Below are positions 20,792 to 57,073 of a DNA stretch of 64,000 nt, one piece after another (within the stretch, counting starts at the first letter, position 1; each line of letters opens with the position of its first letter). The position numbers and the translations under genes are program-made. The notes under the pieces were generated by a model. The model was not told the DNA's origin and ran no database searches. It saw nothing but the letters and a program-made list of their open reading frames with translations. Source of the stretch: Parcubacteria group bacterium Gr01-1014_13 (GTDB lineage: Bacteria; Patescibacteriota; Patescibacteriia; Magasanikbacterales; GWA2-37-8); the NCBI GenBank assembly GCA_007376295.1, contig VMGB01000001.1, positions 182,643 to 246,642 of the forward strand. The letters run 5' to 3'.

Positions 20792-21088
20792 TTATTCTGG
20801 TTTGCGCTTTGCTAGCTTAGCGGCTTTTTTCCAAACAGATTTTTTGGTACCGTGATCATTTTCAGCGTAATCACTAACATCGTTCTTAACCGGGAAAACA
20901 CCGGGCCTATAGAGAACCACAGTCCAATGCTTAGGTTTGTGTCCATACTCTTTACGCGGTTCAAACACGCGCACTGTTGATGGATGGCTTATAGAAAGCC
21001 AATGTTCGGGAAGTTTTGACCATCTATATTTTTGCACCCAGACGAAGTGGACACCGTCTACTACTTTGGGATTTCTTCTTGTGGCCAT
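20792..21088 (-). CDS. Small hypothetical protein, paralogue 1 (HWLSISHP...VRVFEP family, unassigned)
   Basis: Shares VHFVWV...HWLSISHP..VRVFEP...LY(K/R)PGVF with the adjacent gene. The track start is a TTG; internal ATG (MATRR) taken instead. Confidence 0.5.
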   Translation of the reverse strand: MATRRNPKVVDGVHFVWVQKYRWSKLPEHWLSISHPSTVRVFEPRKEYGHKPKHWTVVLYRPGVFPVKNDVSDYAENDHGTKKSVWKKAAKLAKRKPE

Positions 21089-21096
21089 AACACCGC

Positions 21097-21405
21097 TCAA
21101 CTCACCGGACGCTTTGCCCAGTTAACGGCCTCTCGCCAAGCAATTCTTTCAGTGCCTAGGTACATTTCCGCATCATACTTGTCGTCGCTGCTAGGCGGAA
21201 TGAATACCCCGGGTTTATAAAGGATCGTCATCCACTCACCATCTTCTTTCGTAAGCGGATGTGGTTCAAACACACGGACTACTTGCGGATGACTAATAGA
21301 AAGCCAGTGCCCCCGAAGATTTGATCCTTCATACTGATCCACCCATACAAAGTGCACATCCAAAACGATTTTGGGTTTTCTCTCGTTATCATTTTTGTTT
21401 TGCAT
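21097..21405 (-). CDS. Small hypothetical protein, paralogue 2
   Basis: About 45% identical over the core to paralogue 1. GGAGG Shine-Dalgarno 5 nt upstream of ATG (MQNKNDNE...). Confidence 0.5.
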   Translation of the reverse strand: MQNKNDNERKPKIVLDVHFVWVDQYEGSNLRGHWLSISHPQVVRVFEPHPLTKEDGEWMTILYKPGVFIPPSSDDKYDAEMYLGTERIAWREAVNWAKRPVS

Positions 21406-21554
21406 GATATCCTCCATTCCTCAAGGGAATTTGTTGAGCGTAGTTAATCACAAAACAACTATGTCAGTCAACTTGACATTTTAAAAAATATATATTGCCT
21501 TCAATTTTTGGTTTTGATATAATCTTTGTAGTATTTATCTTCTAACCTCTACGT

Positions 21555-21786: not shown

Positions 21787-22944
21787 ATGATTAAAAAAAT
21801 AAAAATTAAAAAATCACATAAAACTATTCAAAAAGATTTTGAATTAGATTTAGAAAAAACAACAGTTATTACTGGGAAAAATAACTCTGGGAAAACAAAC
21901 TTTATTCAAGCGGTAAATGCTAAAAAAGACGTGGAATTTACTAATGCAGAGTTCTTGGATGAAAAAGATAAATTAATAATTCCAATTACTATTTATATAG
22001 CTGCAGAAAATATAAACCCTTCTGATAATGAATCAAACTCTTCGGCTAAAAAAAGTAGTTTGATACAAAATTTAGCAGAATTATTTTCTAATTTAGGAAT
22101 TAAATTTATTCTTGAAGAACAACCTAAAATTATTCAGGAAATAAAAACTTTAATAGATAAGGCGGATGAAAATTTAAAGGAATTCAGCGGAAAAAATGAT
22201 CATGGTATTAAAATAAAATTTAATGAAGGAGAATTGGACCCCGCTACCATAGCACAAGCCTTAATTAAAAAAATTATTGGAGACGAAAACGGAGAGGAGG
22301 TAGATCTAGACGATTTAGGACAAGGCACTCAAAGAATAATTGTTGCTTCAATTTTGAAAGCGTATGTGGATATTTTGATCGAAAGAAACAAACATTCTCA
22401 AGAACCAATACTAATTCTTTTTGAAGAACCCGAAATTTATTTACACCCTGAATTGAAAAGGACTCTTAACATAACATTAAAAAAGATAGCTGAGCAAGAT
22501 AATCATCAGGTTATAATTACGACCCACGATCCATACTTTGCTTATACTAATTTAAATGGTGAAAATAGCGTTGTTTACTCTTTTTTAAAAACTGCAGAGT
22601 ACACAGAAAAAACAGAGCCAGGTATTATATTTGGAATTGAAGATGAATTACTTCATATTCATCTTTTTGAAAAAATGATACAAATATTAAAGAAAAGTGG
22701 GAAGGTTAAATCTTTTATATTAGACCCTGGTAAAGAATTAGACATCTATATAAAGGGTTATTGCGGAAAAGAATTAAGAGCAAATACATGGTATAAAGAA
22801 AAAAAAGGCATAGAAGATAAGCTTTCTCTACCTTTACATATCAGGCATTTAATCCACCATCCTGGAGGTAAAGATAAATTCACTGATATTGATTTAGAAA
22901 AATCAATAGAAATATTAAATTTAATTCTAAGCAAAGCATCTTAA
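21787..22944 (+). CDS. AAA/ABC-type ATPase of the OLD/AAA_15-AAA_21 family (385 aa)
   Basis: Walker A VITGKNNSGKTNFIQAV, ABC-like signature region DLGQGTQR, and Walker B/D-loop ILILFEEPEIYLHPELKRTL...VIITTHDP. The C-terminal 130 aa has no obvious match; it may be a degenerate Toprim-like region (GIEDE...LDPGKELD). Confidence 0.8.
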   Translation: MIKKIKIKKSHKTIQKDFELDLEKTTVITGKNNSGKTNFIQAVNAKKDVEFTNAEFLDEKDKLIIPITIYIAAENINPSDNESNSSAKKSSLIQNLAELFSNLGIKFILEEQPKIIQEIKTLIDKADENLKEFSGKNDHGIKIKFNEGELDPATIAQALIKKIIGDENGEEVDLDDLGQGTQRIIVASILKAYVDILIERNKHSQEPILILFEEPEIYLHPELKRTLNITLKKIAEQDNHQVIITTHDPYFAYTNLNGENSVVYSFLKTAEYTEKTEPGIIFGIEDELLHIHLFEKMIQILKKSGKVKSFILDPGKELDIYIKGYCGKELRANTWYKEKKGIEDKLSLPLHIRHLIHHPGGKDKFTDIDLEKSIEILNLILSKAS

Positions 22945-22970
22945 TGATGATCTAATTTTTTGTATTAAAT

Positions 22971-24476
22971 ATGGATTTTATTAGTAAAACAACTTATTTA
23001 GAGTATTTATCTTGCGGTAAAAATGCCTGGCTTAGATGTTATAAACCGGAATTAAAATCATTATTTAAATTATCTGATTTTGATAAAAGCCTAGTAGATA
23101 AAGGAAACTTAGTGGAAGATTGGGCGCGCAAACTTTTTCCAGACGGCGTTTTAATTACCGAATCAGACGAAGAAGCTTTACGAATTACCAAACAGCATAT
23201 CGCAGATAAAACACACGTTATTTTTCAATCAAAATTCATTCATGACAAATTTTTGGCAAAAAACGACGTGCTTGAGTATGATAAATTTAATGATTGTTGG
23301 AATTTATACGAAATTAAAGGCACTAATACTTTAGACGAAAATGTAAAAGAAATAGATCATATAGAAGATGCCACTTTTCAAACTATTATTCTAAAAGCCG
23401 TAGGAATTAAAGTTGGTAAAGTATTCATTATCCACCTAAACAAAGAATACGTCAGAGAAGAAGAAATAAACGTGGAGGAGCTTTTTATTAAGGATGACAT
23501 AACTGAGGAAGTTAAAAATAGGGAAGAAAATACAAAAGAAAAAATGCAAAAAGCAGCCGAATGTTTATTTCAACAAAATGAACAAGCTTTGGTCTGTCAA
23601 TGTGTCTATTCAGGCCGAAGCGCGCACTGTGCAACATTTAATTACTCCTATCCCAACATTCCAGAATACTCGGTTCATGATTTATCTAGAATAGGGAATA
23701 GTAAAAAAAAGTTAGAATCTTTGGTTGATTCACAAATTTTTGATATAAATGAAATTCCTGAAGATTTTGAATTAACACCCAATCAGCAAAATCAAGTTTA
23801 TGTACACAAAACTCAAAAACCAATAGTAGATTTAGTGGCTATAAAAAAAGAGCTTAAATCGCTTGCATATCCTCTGTATTTTTTGGATTATGAAACATAC
23901 CCGCCGGCCATACCTTTGTTTAAGGGTTTTAAGCCATACCAACAAATACCATTTCAATTTTCTTTACATATAATAGATGATGAAGATAGCGAACCGATCC
24001 ACTTGGAATATTTGCACGAAAATGCTACGGATCCATCTTTGTCTATTATACTCAAATTAAAAGAAATGATTGGTCCAAATGGCAATATAATTACCTGGAA
24101 TAAAAGATTTGAAAAAGGAATAAATACACAATTAGCTGAAAGAAACCCGGAATATGCAGATTTTATTGAAGATATAAATAGTAGAATTTATGATTTAATG
24201 GAAATATTCCAAAAACAATTTTATGTTCATCCTGGTTTTAAAGGAAAAGTTTCCATAAAAAAAGTTTTACCTATTTTAGTTCCTAAATTAAGCTATAAAG
24301 AACTAGAAATAAAAGAGGGCGGATCTGCTATGGAAGCATGGTACGAGATGGTATTTGGATCTGGCTCACAAGCAGATAAAAATAAAATAGCTGACGACCT
24401 GCGAAAATATTGCGGTTTAGATACTTATGCAATGTATGCAATTTGGAAAGAATTAATGAAAATTGTATGGCAATGA
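22971..24476 (+). CDS. Cas4/RecB-like PD-(D/E)xK Fe-S nuclease N-domain fused to a DUF2779 domain (predicted RNaseH-like exonuclease)
   Basis: N-terminal Cys-containing region (LSCGKNAWLRCY), D...EIK motif (NDVLEYD...YEIKG), Cys cluster CQCVYSGRSAHC, and DUF2779 core YFLDYETYPPAIPLFKGFKPYQQIPFQFSLH. Confidence 0.65.
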   Translation: MDFISKTTYLEYLSCGKNAWLRCYKPELKSLFKLSDFDKSLVDKGNLVEDWARKLFPDGVLITESDEEALRITKQHIADKTHVIFQSKFIHDKFLAKNDVLEYDKFNDCWNLYEIKGTNTLDENVKEIDHIEDATFQTIILKAVGIKVGKVFIIHLNKEYVREEEINVEELFIKDDITEEVKNREENTKEKMQKAAECLFQQNEQALVCQCVYSGRSAHCATFNYSYPNIPEYSVHDLSRIGNSKKKLESLVDSQIFDINEIPEDFELTPNQQNQVYVHKTQKPIVDLVAIKKELKSLAYPLYFLDYETYPPAIPLFKGFKPYQQIPFQFSLHIIDDEDSEPIHLEYLHENATDPSLSIILKLKEMIGPNGNIITWNKRFEKGINTQLAERNPEYADFIEDINSRIYDLMEIFQKQFYVHPGFKGKVSIKKVLPILVPKLSYKELEIKEGGSAMEAWYEMVFGSGSQADKNKIADDLRKYCGLDTYAMYAIWKELMKIVWQ

Positions 24477-46142: not shown

Positions 46143-46886
46143 CTAACCACCCTTCAACATCTTTAGCGAACCGTTCGCTTCGGGTAGAGCCAGCTCGCGA
46201 TACGGATCATCAGACGGATCTTTTGCCGTATTAAGCTGATGCTGACTAATTGTAGTGCTAATTTTTTTCGCCTCTCTATATAATAGTTGTCGGCGTTCTT
46301 CTAGCCACTCACAAAATTTTTCATTCATTTTTCCTGATGTTTGCAGATGATCTAGGATATCAAACAGGTTGCAGCCATGAGCTTTTTGAAGCACTGGACA
46401 GATGAAGCTGCTATTTAGACGGCCGACACCAGCTGGCTTCTCGTCATTTTTTTCAGCTGTAATTCTTTGAAAAATACCACAGCTATTGCAAAAAGTGCCT
46501 ATATTTCCTGCACCAACTAGAAATGCTCCTGTCACTGAATGATCTTTCATTTCACTGATTTCGTGGAGCACTAGAAAATTTTGTTTACAATAAATACAGA
46601 CACTTTCAGCTCTACTCGTTTGCAACCAGCCTAGCATGTGCGCCCGCGGCGCTACGTTCTTTTCCAAAACAGTAAACCCCAACTGTCGCAAACGTTGGAC
46701 AACTGTTTGCCCGCCTTCCGGTCCTCCGCCGGTACCGAGCAAAAGAGCCTCTTTTGCTGCCAGTCGTCTGATTATCGTAGTTTCTAGCAAGAGACTGTAT
46801 TTGATTTCTGCGAGTTTACTGGCCAAGATAAAACCGCCACCCCCAGCGAGTAACACCCAGACTAAACATACAATGAGATAGAACAT
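46143..46886 (-). CDS. Hypothetical membrane-anchored Cys/His-rich protein
   Basis: N-terminal TM helix, Gly-rich GTGGGPEGG, and CIYCKQ...H...CNSCG...HGC clusters. Strong GGGAGG Shine-Dalgarno. Own promoter and terminator. Confidence 0.55.
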   Translation of the reverse strand: MFYLIVCLVWVLLAGGGGFILASKLAEIKYSLLLETTIIRRLAAKEALLLGTGGGPEGGQTVVQRLRQLGFTVLEKNVAPRAHMLGWLQTSRAESVCIYCKQNFLVLHEISEMKDHSVTGAFLVGAGNIGTFCNSCGIFQRITAEKNDEKPAGVGRLNSSFICPVLQKAHGCNLFDILDHLQTSGKMNEKFCEWLEERRQLLYREAKKISTTISQHQLNTAKDPSDDPYRELALPEANGSLKMLKGG

Positions 46887-46988
46887 GATGTCCTCCCTTT
46901 TTTGTCTCCCAAACTTAGCAAAATTTTAACGCTTTGTCAAGATAAAAAAAGGGCTCCTATATGTTTTCACATGTAAAAGCCCATTGAC

Positions 46989-47792
46989 TTACTGATCCAT
47001 CCCGCACTCATTCCAGTTGACCGGCGCGAATCCCTGTCCTGGGTACCTATCAAGGATATTACTCATGGCCGTGGCAATCTCTTCATCCCACCGTTCTCCA
47101 GTTGTTAACAGGAGAAAGGTATTTTCGGTCGGGCCGAATGAGACACTATTACGATTCATGATACACTCGTCCTCACCCGGCGGATACGCTTCCGGACAGG
47201 TGTGATCTCCGGGCTCGTTCCCGCTACCACAATAATGGTGATGCAGTCCCAATGTATGACCAAACTCATGGGCAAAGATTGTTTCGTAAACCAGATAGAC
47301 TTTGTGTCCGCCACCATAGGAAGTACCAGTACCTCCTAGAGTAGCCACGATATCATGACCAGGTAGCTGGTCGGCATCCATACCTGGCTGGTATTCCAAA
47401 AATGTGAAACTCCAACCCGGAAATTGCAGTTCCGCTAGGCGCTTGAGAGTGGCGAAATGTTCGGCTTCGTTTGTCCATGGCGGGTTGTAAAGTACCGGGT
47501 TTTCGTAGCGAACGTAGACGTTTACTTCGTGCTCATGACGACCGCTGAGATAGGCCCTGGACCACGTATTCTTACGTTTGAGCATCCAATCGGCCCACTC
47601 TGGCAGCATGCCAATTTTTGCTTGATAGGCCGCCATTTCAGCTTCATAGCCCAGCAAAATCTCTTCGTCTTCGGAGGTGCCAACATCGTTTGGCCCTGCA
47701 TCGGCGACCGAATCGTCGCTCTCCGTATCGCTATGGCAAGCAGCAAAAGCAAAAATGAACAAAGCAAACATCAGACAAGCCTTGAATTTCAT
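46989..47792 (-). CDS. Lipoprotein zinc metalloprotease of the metzincin type
   Basis: Lipobox LFIFAFAAC, the HExxHxxGxxH motif (HEFGHTLGLHH), and a downstream Met-turn candidate (ECIMN). AGGAGG Shine-Dalgarno. Confidence 0.7.
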   Translation of the reverse strand: MKFKACLMFALFIFAFAACHSDTESDDSVADAGPNDVGTSEDEEILLGYEAEMAAYQAKIGMLPEWADWMLKRKNTWSRAYLSGRHEHEVNVYVRYENPVLYNPPWTNEAEHFATLKRLAELQFPGWSFTFLEYQPGMDADQLPGHDIVATLGGTGTSYGGGHKVYLVYETIFAHEFGHTLGLHHHYCGSGNEPGDHTCPEAYPPGEDECIMNRNSVSFGPTENTFLLLTTGERWDEEIATAMSNILDRYPGQGFAPVNWNECGMDQ

Positions 47793-47916
47793 GAGTTTCC
47801 TCCTGTTAAAGTTGATTGCAAGCTACCATATTTTAGTGGTTTTGTCAAGGTTAAAAGTTTAAAAAAGCCCTCGTACGTTTACACATACAAGGGCCCATCA
47901 AAACCAACAAAATTTG

Positions 47917-48420
47917 TTAAATCACTTGCGCCAGAGTCAAAGCTCTGTGCTCTGTCTGCTGAAAAATTATGACTGCGTCTTCCGGATTCAAAAACCGATC
48001 AAACCGGTAACGACAGAAACATCGTCTCGAGCCCCTTACTCTGGCATAAGCAACGCAGATATCATTATCTGTGTTTAGCCATCTGGAATCTTCATCCAAA
48101 GCAAAAACTGCGGAATACTTTTCAATCTCCTCTGGATAGTGTCTGGCAAACTGGACAAGCTCACCGATATTCCCAAGGATATAGCCTTCGGCCACAAGAT
48201 CGCGCGCAAACTTTTCGATCCCTTTCCAACACAGGCACGGCGCCAATCTGGGAAGCATTATTCCGCTATTACCCCCGGCGCAATTAAATGTTTCAAAAGG
48301 AATATCCAGAGAAATATTGTAAAGATTTTCTTCGCCTACCGCCTTACGGGCCAATTCCCTTAAGCTACAGGTACTATCCAACACAGTTGGAAAAACCTGG
48401 CTGATTTTCGTTTCGCTCAT
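47917..48420 (-). CDS. Hypothetical protein (167 aa, Cys-rich, no family recognised)
   Basis: AAAGGAGG Shine-Dalgarno. Bounded by promoter and terminator modules like its neighbours. Confidence 0.5.
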   Translation of the reverse strand: MSETKISQVFPTVLDSTCSLRELARKAVGEENLYNISLDIPFETFNCAGGNSGIMLPRLAPCLCWKGIEKFARDLVAEGYILGNIGELVQFARHYPEEIEKYSAVFALDEDSRWLNTDNDICVAYARVRGSRRCFCRYRFDRFLNPEDAVIIFQQTEHRALTLAQVI

Positions 48421-48554
48421 CGCGCAACCTCCTTTTACCCGTTATTTTCTAACCCCAGTTTAATCAAATTTTTACGCTTTGTCAATATTGAATAATAAAA
48501 AAATACCTGGCGTATGAATGTTCTACAACTAAACATTTCTTTACGCAGGTATGA

Positions 48555-54461: not shown

Positions 54462-55361
54462 ATGCAAAAAGTTAAGACTGTTTTTTTCGGCACACAAGAT
54501 TTTGCTGCCACTATTTTGCAAGGATTGCTGGACAGCGATATTGTTTCGATAGAAATGGTTTTTACTCAACCAGACAGAAAAACTGGACGCAAACAAATTA
54601 TCGAAGAATCTCCGGTAAAAAAATTGGCTAAAAAATATAATATAAAAATAGAACAGCCGGAAACATTAAAAAATTCCGAGATTGATTTATCTGGATTTGA
54701 ATTAGGAATCGTGGCGCAATACGGTTTGATCATCCCAAAAAAGATTATTGACTCCTTCCCTAAAGGCATGATCAATGTACACGGCTCTCTGCTTCCAAAA
54801 TACCGTGGCGCCTCCCCTATTCAGGCAGCCTTAATAAATGGAGAAAAAGAGACTGGGGTAACTATTATGGTTATGGACGAAAAGATGGATCATGGCCCTA
54901 TTTTATCTCAAAAATCCATACTTGTTGACCCAAACGACACTTATACCACCCTGGCCTCTAAAATGGCTGTGGAAGGCCAAATTTTGCTTTTAAATACCCT
55001 TCCAGATTGGCTAAATGACACTTTAAAAGCTCAGCCACAAGACGAAAGCCAAGCTACCTTCACTAAGCTCTTGGCTAAAGAGGATGGGCTTGTAGATTTT
55101 CACAAAACTAATGATGAAATATATAACCAGTACCGAGGTTTGAGTCCTTGGCCTGGGGTTTGGTGTATGCGTAATGACAAACGATTAAAACTTTTAAAAA
55201 TTTCTAAATCAGGCAAAACTTTGCCTGTCGGTGAAGCCATGGTAGAAAACAAACGCATTTTTATTGGTTGCAGTAAAGGCTCAATTGAAATTTTGGAACT
55301 ACAATTAGAAGGAAAGGCCGCTATGGATGCCTCTACCTTTTTGAACGGATATAAAGTATAA
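54462..55361 (+). CDS. fmt: Methionyl-tRNA formyltransferase
   Basis: Formyltransferase N-domain (VFFGTQDFA...HGSLLPKYRGASPIQ) and C-domain. Confidence 0.9.
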   Translation: MQKVKTVFFGTQDFAATILQGLLDSDIVSIEMVFTQPDRKTGRKQIIEESPVKKLAKKYNIKIEQPETLKNSEIDLSGFELGIVAQYGLIIPKKIIDSFPKGMINVHGSLLPKYRGASPIQAALINGEKETGVTIMVMDEKMDHGPILSQKSILVDPNDTYTTLASKMAVEGQILLLNTLPDWLNDTLKAQPQDESQATFTKLLAKEDGLVDFHKTNDEIYNQYRGLSPWPGVWCMRNDKRLKLLKISKSGKTLPVGEAMVENKRIFIGCSKGSIEILELQLEGKAAMDASTFLNGYKV

Positions 55362-55423
55362 TGTTAGTGGTATCGCCAACCATTCGGGTTGGTATGAGCC
55401 GTGGCTAGTAAGAGGAGCGATCG

Positions 55424-55573
55424 TTGACGACGAAACAGCGAAAGAAACAAGTCCGTAGAACTGTGGCCAGGGAATACCAGTTGCCGGTTCAGAAGTTCTT
55501 CTGGGATGGCAACATTTTGTTCCTGTGCAAGGACGGCAAGAAAGAGCGTGTTGCGGAGGTTCGCACCAACTAG
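55424..55573 (+). CDS. Possible small basic protein (49 aa, TTG start) in a GC-rich segment: MTTKQRKKQVRRTVAREYQLPVQKFFWDGNILFLCKDGKKERVAEVRTN
   Basis: Strong Shine-Dalgarno AAGAGGAG 6 nt upstream of the TTG. Followed by a strong terminator. Not in the ORF track. Could instead be part of a structured RNA. Confidence 0.35.
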   Translation: MTTKQRKKQVRRTVAREYQLPVQKFFWDGNILFLCKDGKKERVAEVRTN

Positions 55574-55587
55574 GGTCAGACCCTGAT

Positions 55588-55627
55588 ACAAGGCTTTTAC
55601 CAGCGTTTGGGCCCATCAAACGCTGGA
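55588..55627 (+). terminator. Rho-independent terminator
   Basis: 10-bp stem ccagcgtttg/caaacgctgg with loop ggcccat, followed by T6. Confidence 0.6.
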
Positions 55628-55639
55628 TATTTTTTCCTC

Positions 55640-57073
55640 ATGACGCAGATTTCCAAAAAACAAATTTATCTATACATCGCCATCTATTTTGGCATAAGAA
55701 TTTTCTCATATTTTTTCAGCCCGGCCACGCCACTATATTTTGCAAACCCTGTAAACTGGATTGTCTCCACCACCATTCTTTTGGTGGTGGTTTATTTTTT
55801 ATTAAAAAAGGATATTCATGGCTGGCTGCTTATCGCCAGCGGAATGGTTTTGGGCGGAGCAGGTAGCTTTTTGGAAATAAAAGGAATTTATTTAAGGACC
55901 TTCCTTTTGGTGTTCTCAATAGCAATTTTTACTTATCAAACTATTAAGGAGAAGAAATATAACATATTTTTGGAAAATAAAACTATTCTTTTTGCATTCC
56001 TCGCCCTGTATACAATTGTTGGCATGTCTGCCTTACGCGGTTATTATGCCGGCCATAACCTTAAACTTGTTATTGCCGACACTCTCCCCTATCTTTTTTT
56101 CTTATACTACTTCCCTATCAAAGAACTCTTGAAGTCAGAAAAATTCCGCAAAGCAGTATTTAACATGCTGATTGTAGCTGTAATTTGTAATTTTGTTTTT
56201 GTCTATTTTACCTTGGTAGCATTTTCTTCAGGGATTTTTGTTTTGCAGGATTCTTATTATCACTGGTTTAGAGATGTGGCGAGCGGTAAAATTACGGATT
56301 ATGGCACAGGATTTTTCCGAATATTGTTAAACGAACAGTTGTTGCTGGTGCCGTTATTTTTATGGCTGTTTGCCAAACAAATTTACAGCGAGAATACGAA
56401 AAAAATCGTTTTCATAATATCTGGCATGGCTCTTTTAGCAGTACTCAGTATAAATATTACCAGAATCTACTTGGTTGGTTTGGCTGTGGGAATTTTATTT
56501 TTATTTTCTTTCAAAAACTGGAAACGCTGGCTGGCATACTCCGCTGGCGCGCTTGGGTTTTTTATTATAGCTTTTACACTCACTCACTTGGGTGCGACAA
56601 AAGGAAAAAGTTTAGGATGGGAGTACTTGGGTTTGCGCCTACAAAGCATAGCTATGCCGCAAACAGAAGATAGTTCGCTAAGCCGACTGTTGCTCCTGCC
56701 GAAGATTATGGAGAAGATCAAAGCTCATCCCCTACTGGGCAATGGTTTAGGAGATACAGTTACGGCTTATAGTCCAATTTTTAAGGCAAACATAACCACA
56801 CCACACTTCGACTGGGGTTACTTAGAGATTATTGCCGAGATGGGAGTTCTGGGATTGATGATATGGGGTTTAATAATTGGATATTTGATATTAAAAATTA
56901 AACAAAACAGAGGCTTGTTGGCCTCTGTGATTGCGTTGTTGGTTATAAACATTACTTCTCCCGCGCTATTTCATGTAATGGGGATAATTCTGATTGCTTA
57001 TTTCTTTTCTGTAAACAAAGCTACTCCTCTACCTAATAGCCAGGCTACGAGCCCGATGGCCATCGGGAAATAA
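55640..57073 (+). CDS. Polytopic membrane protein, O-antigen ligase/polymerase-like. ATG 55640 (MTQISKK) chosen; the track start is a TTG inside the terminator.
   Basis: More than 10 TM helices, with a large periplasmic loop near the C-terminal third that is typical of Wzy_C/WaaL-like proteins. This is inference. Confidence 0.5.
   Translation: MTQISKKQIYLYIAIYFGIRIFSYFFSPATPLYFANPVNWIVSTTILLVVVYFLLKKDIHGWLLIASGMVLGGAGSFLEIKGIYLRTFLLVFSIAIFTYQTIKEKKYNIFLENKTILFAFLALYTIVGMSALRGYYAGHNLKLVIADTLPYLFFLYYFPIKELLKSEKFRKAVFNMLIVAVICNFVFVYFTLVAFSSGIFVLQDSYYHWFRDVASGKITDYGTGFFRILLNEQLLLVPLFLWLFAKQIYSENTKKIVFIISGMALLAVLSINITRIYLVGLAVGILFLFSFKNWKRWLAYSAGALGFFIIAFTLTHLGATKGKSLGWEYLGLRLQSIAMPQTEDSSLSRLLLLPKIMEKIKAHPLLGNGLGDTVTAYSPIFKANITTPHFDWGYLEIIAEMGVLGLMIWGLIIGYLILKIKQNRGLLASVIALLVINITSPALFHVMGIILIAYFFSVNKATPLPNSQATSPMAIGK

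Follow-up and report, generated by a model that had tools for sequence, protein, structure and literature searches.

The GC-rich spacer downstream of fmt

The window (the whole stretch of 64,000 nucleotides [nt] analyzed here) comes from a Magasanikbacteria-like genome of the Patescibacteria (Candidate Phyla Radiation [CPR]). In this DNA, priA, def, and fmt are followed by a spacer and then by a gene for a Wzy_C-type membrane protein. The spacer (positions 55362 to 55639, 278 nt) has a GC content of 51%, compared with about 38% in its surroundings; in 100-nt windows, the GC fraction is 0.51 over 55400 to 55650 and 0.28 to 0.45 in the flanks. A sequence-only reading had singled out a GC-rich segment after fmt as the site of either a 49-codon frame or a structured RNA. 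The GC contrast is borne out, and the elements that it named (a hairpin, a strong Shine-Dalgarno [SD] sequence, a 6-nt gap, a TTG codon, the 49-codon frame, and a terminator) all lie where it had placed them. The features of the locus are as follows.

54462 to 55361, + strand: fmt (methionyl-tRNA formyltransferase), a 299-amino-acid (aa) open reading frame (ORF) with its TAA at 55359 to 55361
55366 to 55374, + strand: remnant of the 3′ arm of leader hairpin P1, recognized in alignments with relatives
55375 to 55393, + strand: leader hairpin P2 (GCCAACC/ATTCG/GGTTGGT), kept in all seven loci
55410 to 55417, + strand: SD sequence AAGAGGAG, predicted to be unpaired and separated from the start codon by the 6-nt spacer CGATCG
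55424 to 55573, + strand: small protein gene with a TTG start, 49 codons, and a TAG at 55571 to 55573; product MTTKQRKKQVRRTVAREYQLPVQKFFWDGNILFLCKDGKKERVAEVRTN
55588 to 55599, + strand: 3′-untranslated-region (3′-UTR) box ACAAGGCTTTTA, 12 nt, conserved in the alignment and directly 5′ of the terminator
55600 to 55635, + strand: intrinsic terminator with a stem of 10 to 11 bp (arms CCAGCGTTTGG and CCAAACGCTGG, 55600 to 55626), a loop of 5 to 7 nt, and then the T-run ATATTTTTT
55640 to 57073, + strand: gene for a Wzy_C (O-antigen-ligase-like) membrane protein (Pfam Wzy_C, E = 2.7e-9)

The SD sequence occurs three times in the 64 kb, against 1.4 occurrences expected. The 49-residue product of the frame behind it has a net charge of +8 and an isoelectric point of 10.4 and contains the segments QVRRTVAR and FFWDGNILFLCK. 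Its stop codon is located 26 nt upstream of the terminator stem, and 4 nt separate the end of the terminator from the ATG of the downstream gene. Because longer ORFs (104 and 75 aa) run antisense in the same GC-rich stretch, ORF length alone is uninformative, and it is the comparison with relatives, not the window by itself, that lifts the segment above chance.

Relatives and distribution of the cassette

Relatives were sought by scanning species-representative genomes with fmt and metagenomes with the downstream membrane protein, which yielded 74 loci; two more came from look-ups of called proteins. Besides the window, six metagenomic loci (L001, L014, L015, L016, L017, and L076) carry a homologous spacer, referred to here as the cassette, directly after fmt. 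The sequence of a further locus, L075, is identical to that of L017, and the two were counted as one. All seven loci share one insertion site, and each has fmt immediately 5′ of the cassette (Formyl_trans_N/C domains are recorded for the fmt orthologues of L075 and L076), and the fmt proteins of the other six are 79 to 89% identical to that of the window. Since the cassette-bearing loci form a single clade on the fmt tree and since in the sister locus L021, as in about 40 relatives further removed, fmt abuts or overlaps the Wzy_C gene with no spacer, the distribution points to one gain of the cassette, in the ancestor of a narrow Magasanikbacteria-like clade of the Patescibacteria.

The cassette is linked to fmt and not to the Wzy_C gene, which is not part of it; in L017/L075 and L076, genes on the opposite strand, other than Wzy_C, come after the cassette. 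In L017 (1950 to 2882, − strand) and L075 (4190 to 5122), the cassette and the Wzy_C gene are separated by a 310-aa gene of the Mem_trans (auxin-efflux-carrier) type on the opposite strand. L076 has a different pair of minus-strand genes 3′ of the cassette, and ATGACGCAA, which resembles the start of Wzy_C, persists 3′ of the terminator.

One copy of the cassette was found in the 64 kb, and no second copy was found elsewhere among 83 loci. A repetitive or mobile element (MITE, REP, or integron cassette) was considered and rejected on account of the single copy, the single insertion site, and the lack of transposon features. One contig (L001, DATION010000002.1) is labeled “Candidatus Udaeobacter sp.” (Verrucomicrobiota), but the proteins of its priA-def-fmt-Wzy_C region are 72 to 79% identical to those of the Patescibacteria window, so this contig is probably mis-binned or mislabeled.

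Conservation of the reading frame

The same frame is open in all seven loci, with 49 to 60 codons except in L001 (96 codons), and the window copy is the shortest of the set. Length differences among the orthologous ORFs are all multiples of whole codons, and the proteins align without frameshifts. DNA identity within the ORF is only about 50%, and blastn between orthologues matches the leader and the 3′ blocks and never the ORF. The window protein matches the L001 protein with 41% identity over 39 aa without gaps (BLASTP, E = 5e-9) and the L017 locus with 54% identity over 48 aa (tblastn), aligning end to end with the 51-aa L017 protein; R11, A15, P21, W27, and a C-terminal N are invariant. 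A search for the frame in related genomes, which the sequence-only reading had proposed, thus found it conserved.

The pattern of substitution is that of a coding sequence. Between the window and L001, the 39 aligned codons agree at 17 first, 26 second, and 14 third positions, and eight conserved residues use different synonymous codons; the order 2 > 1 > 3 holds in most pairs. When BLASTP bits were summed for the six frames, the sense frame reached 855, the codon-aligned antisense frame 475, and the others about 260. L015 and L076, the sole unsaturated pair, differ at 13 sites, 8 of them third positions (dN 0.047, dS 0.21, dN/dS of about 0.2); dS is saturated in all other pairs, and dN/dS is to be read as a rough figure. 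The dN of the small protein is 0.28 to 1.1, which is 4 to 8 times that of fmt, so the constraint on it is weak. These comparative tests rest on seven sequences from six distinct lineages, and they show a conserved coding frame on which purifying constraint acts, if weakly.

The initiation signals are conserved as well: GGAG, a 6-nt gap, and TTG are kept in six of the seven loci, and L001 has GGGG, a 5-nt gap, and ATG. Three of the orthologues (P0001, P0003, and P0004) have been called independently by gene callers. In L001 (5011 to 5301), the stop codon has been lost (TAG to ACA), and the frame continues for 47 extra codons across an insertion of about 190 nt seen at this locus only; the product has 96 aa and a net charge of +13. 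The antisense ORFs of 104 and 75 aa were rejected as candidate genes; neither is conserved, and the 75-aa product, which was run as a control in structure prediction, was poorly predicted (pLDDT 65.7, pTM 0.37).

The predicted protein

For the small protein itself, AlphaFold2 with two input sequences gave a confident model (pLDDT 91.8, pTM 0.67) with a helix at residues 3 to 18 and strands at 25 to 28, 31 to 36, and 39 to 45. The product is accordingly described here as a predicted soluble, strongly basic protein in which an amphipathic N-terminal helix would be followed by a three-stranded antiparallel sheet. All members are basic (net charge of +4 to +13, isoelectric point of 9.7 to 11.4). 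The charge resides mostly on the N-terminal helix, in agreement with the basic N terminus noted from the window peptide. The SH3/KOW-like beta pattern suggested for the remainder did not hold up: the model has one helix and three strands and no five-stranded barrel, and neither Pfam nor the fold searches returned a KOW or SH3 match. Taken together, the conserved frame, the codon-position pattern, the GGAG-6 nt-TTG arrangement, and the confident fold prediction favor the 49-aa ORF that had been proposed from the window.

Homology searches returned the orthologues and little else. A word-indexed protein search with the 49-aa peptide gave no candidate in a collection from which the window's own ORF is itself missing. 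An exhaustive HMMER profile search of 1.84 billion representatives recovered only the L001 orthologue and a marginal, unrelated match to the L001-specific tail, and a six-sequence profile run against 5.8 billion proteins recovered only the three orthologues already called by gene callers. Nothing significant was found in Pfam, NCBIfam, PADLOC, PHROGs, or the sequences of the PDB (best PHROGs match, E = 0.19); a DUF5372 match (E = 0.056) was dismissed, as it involved one member only. Fold searches returned only generic helix-plus-three-strand substructures, the best match to a small protein being an uncharacterized 55-aa siphovirus protein (BFVD A0A8S5Q8J0, TM 0.71, E = 0.017). Viral contigs and phage genomes contained no relatives, and seven hairpin-pattern matches in viral contigs are chance matches; for a scan by pattern, the six aligned sequences proved too divergent. 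As judged by these searches of sequence collections, the protein is established as a lineage-restricted orphan.

Our best guess at its activity, drawn from charge and shape only, is that it might bind nucleic acid through the basic helix, a function that we regard as possible but less than probable. A type I toxin was rejected, since the protein is hydrophilic, basic (net charge of +8), and predicted to be globular alpha/beta and has no hydrophobic segment.

RNA structure in the leader, the coding region, and the terminator

The rival reading of the segment is that it is a structured noncoding or cis-regulatory (riboswitch-like) RNA and that the ORF is incidental to a GC-rich RNA. Such a reading would account for a GC-rich segment in an AT-rich genome, for a + strand that folds somewhat better than its shuffles (z = −2.75), for covarying leader hairpins, and for flanks that are more conserved than the middle. 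Rfam, however, gave no match in the window segment, either at gathering thresholds or at E ≤ 10, or in five related loci at E ≤ 1, and ARAGORN detected no tRNA or tmRNA in the segment. RNAalifold applied to the codon alignment of the seven ORFs returned a consensus energy of 0 and an SCI of 0, and the folding of the ORFs did not exceed that of their own synonymous permutations (z = −1.6 to +0.7). Conservation in the central 150 nt is codon periodic and frame specific. The comparison with synonymous permutations also led us to reject selection on mRNA structure as the cause of the high GC content at third codon positions (GC3; see below). The terminator accounts for the folding seen in the segment as a whole, with z scores of −3.5 for the 3′ UTR and −0.45 for the 5′ leader alone.

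Only the hairpin or hairpins of the 5′ leader and the terminator show conserved RNA structure. In relatives, the leader consists of two adjacent hairpins upstream of the SD sequence, P1 (16 bp) and P2 (7 bp); over the seven sequences, 91% of cells in P1 and P2 are paired, compared with 32 to 44% in slid controls, and 7 pairs have changed on both sides. The 16-bp stem of P1, present in the other six loci, has five pairs altered on both sides. In P2, 96% of the cells of the seven pairs are paired, two C-G pairs have been replaced in a compensatory manner by U-A, and the loop varies freely. The hairpin that had been noticed upstream of the frame (gccaacc/attcg/ggttggt, 55375 to 55393) is therefore a conserved RNA structure with compensatory changes, and this part of the structured-RNA proposal stands; the part that concerned the body of the segment does not, given its SCI of 0 and its lack of excess folding. 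Weighing covariation against codon periodicity, as had been suggested, thus separates the segment into a codon-periodic ORF and covarying leader hairpins P1 and P2. The reading of the whole as an RNA gene is largely refuted, and we assign it almost no remaining probability. The GC-rich stretch is very probably an unannotated gene for a 49-residue basic protein confined to a narrow clade of Patescibacteria, and with good confidence the locus as a whole is best explained by one copy of a compact gene cassette lying between fmt and the Wzy_C-like gene.

The terminator that had been seen behind the frame is well supported, with its 10- to 11-bp stem and T-run. The stem is nearly invariant in all seven loci and shows no covariation, and it is present also where the downstream gene differs (L017 and L076). 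The 12-nt box and the terminator together are 89 to 96% identical between the window and L014, L015, and L016, compared with 55 to 63% for fmt third positions, and in blastn comparisons the leader and 3′ blocks of orthologues are 86 to 100% identical. These noncoding blocks are thus more conserved in DNA than the ORF that they enclose, a hint that elements acting as RNA or DNA may be no less important than the protein. Strong selection on termination is a candidate explanation for the conservation of the terminator and box, and the only one that we can offer; signals for the downstream gene may be embedded in the terminator region, 4 nt from its start codon. Pairings between the 5′ and 3′ parts (GGTAWGAGCC with GGCYTTTRCC and GGCTAG with CTAGCC) and a pseudoknot of the 3′ box with the terminator loop were considered and dropped, as by eye they are not kept consistently across loci.

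Another hairpin with a T-run (9 bp, GC rich; 55767 to 55800, + strand) lies inside the Wzy_C-like gene, about 125 nt past its start. It gave a sub-threshold Rfam match to RF02278 (29 bits, gathering score of 50) and is probably a by-product of coding for TTILLVVV.

Expression of the cassette

The P1 region of the relatives reads as a promoter-like TTGRCG-16/17-TAAAnT (sigma-70-like). The L016 site (TTGACG-17-TAAAAT) matches at 10 of 12 positions, and other relatives have weaker sites (TTGGCG-16/17-TAAAnT, judged by eye). If this promoter is used, P2 would come to lie close to the start of the transcript, where stabilizing hairpins are typically located; a role of P2 as an mRNA stability or processing element is conceivable, and we propose it tentatively, as less likely than its alternatives. 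In the window, a deletion of about 45 to 55 nt has removed P1 and left P2 in place. No promoter-like site was found upstream of the window ORF, whose mRNA therefore probably arises by read-through from fmt, and none was found between the terminator and the next gene.

From these features, a course of expression can be proposed. The cassette, made up of a 5′ leader, an ORF led by an SD sequence, and a terminator, would have been inserted once between fmt and the Wzy_C-like gene. Leader hairpin P1 would overlap the promoter-like site in relatives, with P2 downstream of it. In the window, because the P1/promoter part is deleted, the gene would most likely be transcribed as the last cistron of priA-def-fmt. 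Translation would start by SD-dependent initiation at the TTG codon, 6 nt past an accessible SD sequence, and the strong intrinsic terminator would end the priA-def-fmt transcript 4 nt before the next gene.

Having lost the promoter-like part of its leader, the window copy may be expressed poorly or may be in the process of disappearing. A stronger version of this idea, that the window copy is a decaying remnant, no longer functional, of a gene conserved in relatives, draws on the absence of the P1 and promoter-like region that the six other loci have and on the window ORF being the shortest. We judge it very unlikely, however, since the ORF is intact and aligns over its full length with the L017 protein, and since no damage is seen in the SD sequence, its spacing, the start codon, or the terminator, with the SD sequence predicted to be accessible.

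The position of the terminator raises a different question, namely, whether the ORF encodes an attenuator leader peptide whose translation controls read-through into the Wzy_C-like gene. The latter starts 4 nt past the T-run without a promoter or SD sequence of its own, its ATG directly follows the terminator not only in the window but also in L001, L014, L015, and L016, and no promoter-like site intervenes. As cassette-free relatives have fmt and the Wzy_C gene as one operon, expression of the downstream gene must pass through or around the terminator. The cassette stays with fmt when the downstream gene changes, however, and this argues against an attenuator: in L017/L075 and L076, the full cassette with its terminator precedes unrelated genes on the opposite strand. 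Moreover, the loci share no alternative (antiterminator) pairing that we could find, 26 nt separate the stop codon from the stem, and the peptide has a conserved, confidently predicted fold, unlike leader peptides. A leader-peptide attenuator is thus highly improbable in our view.

Composition, SD usage, and origin

The GC3 of the small ORF is 0.69 in the window and 0.52 to 0.84 in its orthologues, compared with 0.28 to 0.42 for fmt and 0.19 to 0.52 for every long ORF in the window. An SD core (GGAG, GAGG, AGGA, or AAGG, counted at 4 to 17 nt upstream of the start) precedes only 4 of 53 genes of the window, the typical upstream sequence being AT rich (e.g., ATAAT ATG); by the 53 long ORFs of the window, the genome is essentially SD-less. 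With its high GC3 and with a strong SD sequence where so few genes have one, the cassette looks foreign to its genome.

Three of the four SD-bearing genes form a neighboring, GC-richer group with promoters and terminators of its own. This trio (− strand, 46143 to 48485; genes at 48420 to 47917, 47792 to 46989, and 46886 to 46143; GC content of 0.44 to 0.50) comprises all the genes of the window, apart from the small ORF, that are clearly SD led. Each of its genes has a TTGACA promoter-like box, a strong SD sequence, and a hairpin with a T-run, and two of the promoter boxes are nearly identical (TTGACAAAGCGTWAAAAWTTTG, at 48485 to 48464 and 46940 to 46919). Two of the trio proteins have no Pfam match, and the middle one is weakly reprolysin-like.

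We put the chances at about even that the cassette is of foreign origin or else that its expression signals and GC-rich codons have been kept by selection. Synonymous sites between orthologues are near saturation, and GC3 is still high; either GC-rich codons have been selected, or the saturation estimates are misleading and amelioration is incomplete. Selection and recent transfer are equally compatible with synonymous sites that are saturated and a GC3 that has stayed high, and no donor was identified for a foreign origin.

A more specific version of foreign origin is that the cassette is a horizontally acquired, moron-like unit that came from a phage or from the host and that its product is not a housekeeping protein but one of conflict or symbiosis (anti-phage, anti-defense, or toxin). 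High GC3, the SD sequence, a terminator of its own, the promoter-like site in relatives, the fast evolution of the protein, the siphovirus protein as best fold match, and confinement to one clade are all consistent with such a unit. We nonetheless consider it unlikely, as PADLOC and PHROGs gave no match, phage genomes and viral contigs gave no relatives, there is no partner gene, integrase, or repeat around this single-copy element, inheritance at its one chromosomal site is stable, and the protein lacks the hydrophobic segment of a type I toxin.

Two other compositional or coding oddities were observed in the window. A low-GC island (21787 to 24476, + strand; GC content of 0.21 to 0.33, GC3 of 0.19 to 0.23) holds two genes, one encoding a 385-aa AAA_15/AAA_21 (AbiEii-like) ATPase and the other a 501-aa DUF2779 protein, and looks like an acquired defense-type pair. 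A tandem pair of paralogous ORFs, each of about 100 aa, lies at 20792 to 21417 (− strand); both contain the motif VHFVWV..Y..S.L..HWLS, and neither has a Pfam match.

Significance and comparison with known systems

The cassette is a new lineage-restricted small protein gene and, as such, a finding of an already known kind. It adds a gene to a stretch annotated as empty and is a concrete case in which a GC-rich intergenic island in an AT-rich genome is a small protein gene and not an RNA. With a confident predicted fold and no relatives beyond its own clade, it is a clean illustration of a CPR orphan that is young or was acquired horizontally, and the rare SD sequence, the TTG start, the GC-rich codons, and UTRs more conserved than the protein offer handles on how acquired genes are expressed in reduced genomes. 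Lineage-specific genes of unknown function are frequent in Patescibacteria, and one such gene will not, by itself, shift the views of specialists.

Among known systems, unannotated bacterial small-ORF proteins (less than about 60 aa) share several traits with this one: they are missed by annotation, have their own ribosome-binding site and terminator, are narrow in lineage, and have no detectable homologues or domains. The present case differs from them in its confident globular fold prediction, its GC-rich codons, its SD sequence in an otherwise SD-less genome, and UTRs conserved above the protein. Phage “morons” are autonomous small expression cassettes. As in morons, a small ORF with its own expression signals and terminator and an atypical composition is inserted here between genes that are adjacent in relatives; unlike morons, the cassette lies outside any prophage at one stable chromosomal locus, has no phage homologue that we could find, and in the window is without the promoter-like part.

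In the GC-IGR approach of the Breaker laboratory, GC-rich intergenic regions of AT-rich genomes serve as candidates for noncoding RNAs. The spacer, a 51% GC intergenic region with hairpins in a genome of about 38% GC, resembles such candidates, but its GC-rich body is coding, and conserved RNA structure takes up only a leader of about 20 to 60 nt and the terminator. With regard to fold, HicA/dsRBD-like small proteins have an alpha-beta-beta-beta(-alpha) order, and the product modeled here is likewise small and basic, with a predicted helix followed by three strands. It has no C-terminal helix, no conserved catalytic His, and no HicB partner, and no sequence match or significant fold match links it to these proteins.

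A parallel in gene expression is the rpsU gene (bS21) of Bacteroidia. Jha, McNutt, Fredrick, and coworkers reportedly found this gene to be SD led in these SD-poor bacteria, the rare SD sequence marking a specially regulated gene for a small basic protein. Both cases combine a gene for a small basic protein with a strong, conserved SD sequence in a nearly SD-less genome. The present protein differs from bS21 in that it has no similarity to it in sequence or fold and no match to Pfam Ribosomal_S21, and its gene, in contrast to those for ribosomal proteins, is lineage restricted and fast evolving. It is quite unlikely, although of interest, that the cassette founds an undescribed family of SD-dependent, specially regulated basic mini-proteins in an SD-less Patescibacteria genome. 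Were this so, the protein would be more than an orphan; the rare SD sequence, the conserved TTG start, the GC-rich codons retained at saturated synonymous sites, and the UTR conservation would be marks of special regulation, and by analogy the product might be a ribosome- or RNA-associated factor, like SD-led bS21, or a symbiosis or conflict effector of foreign origin.
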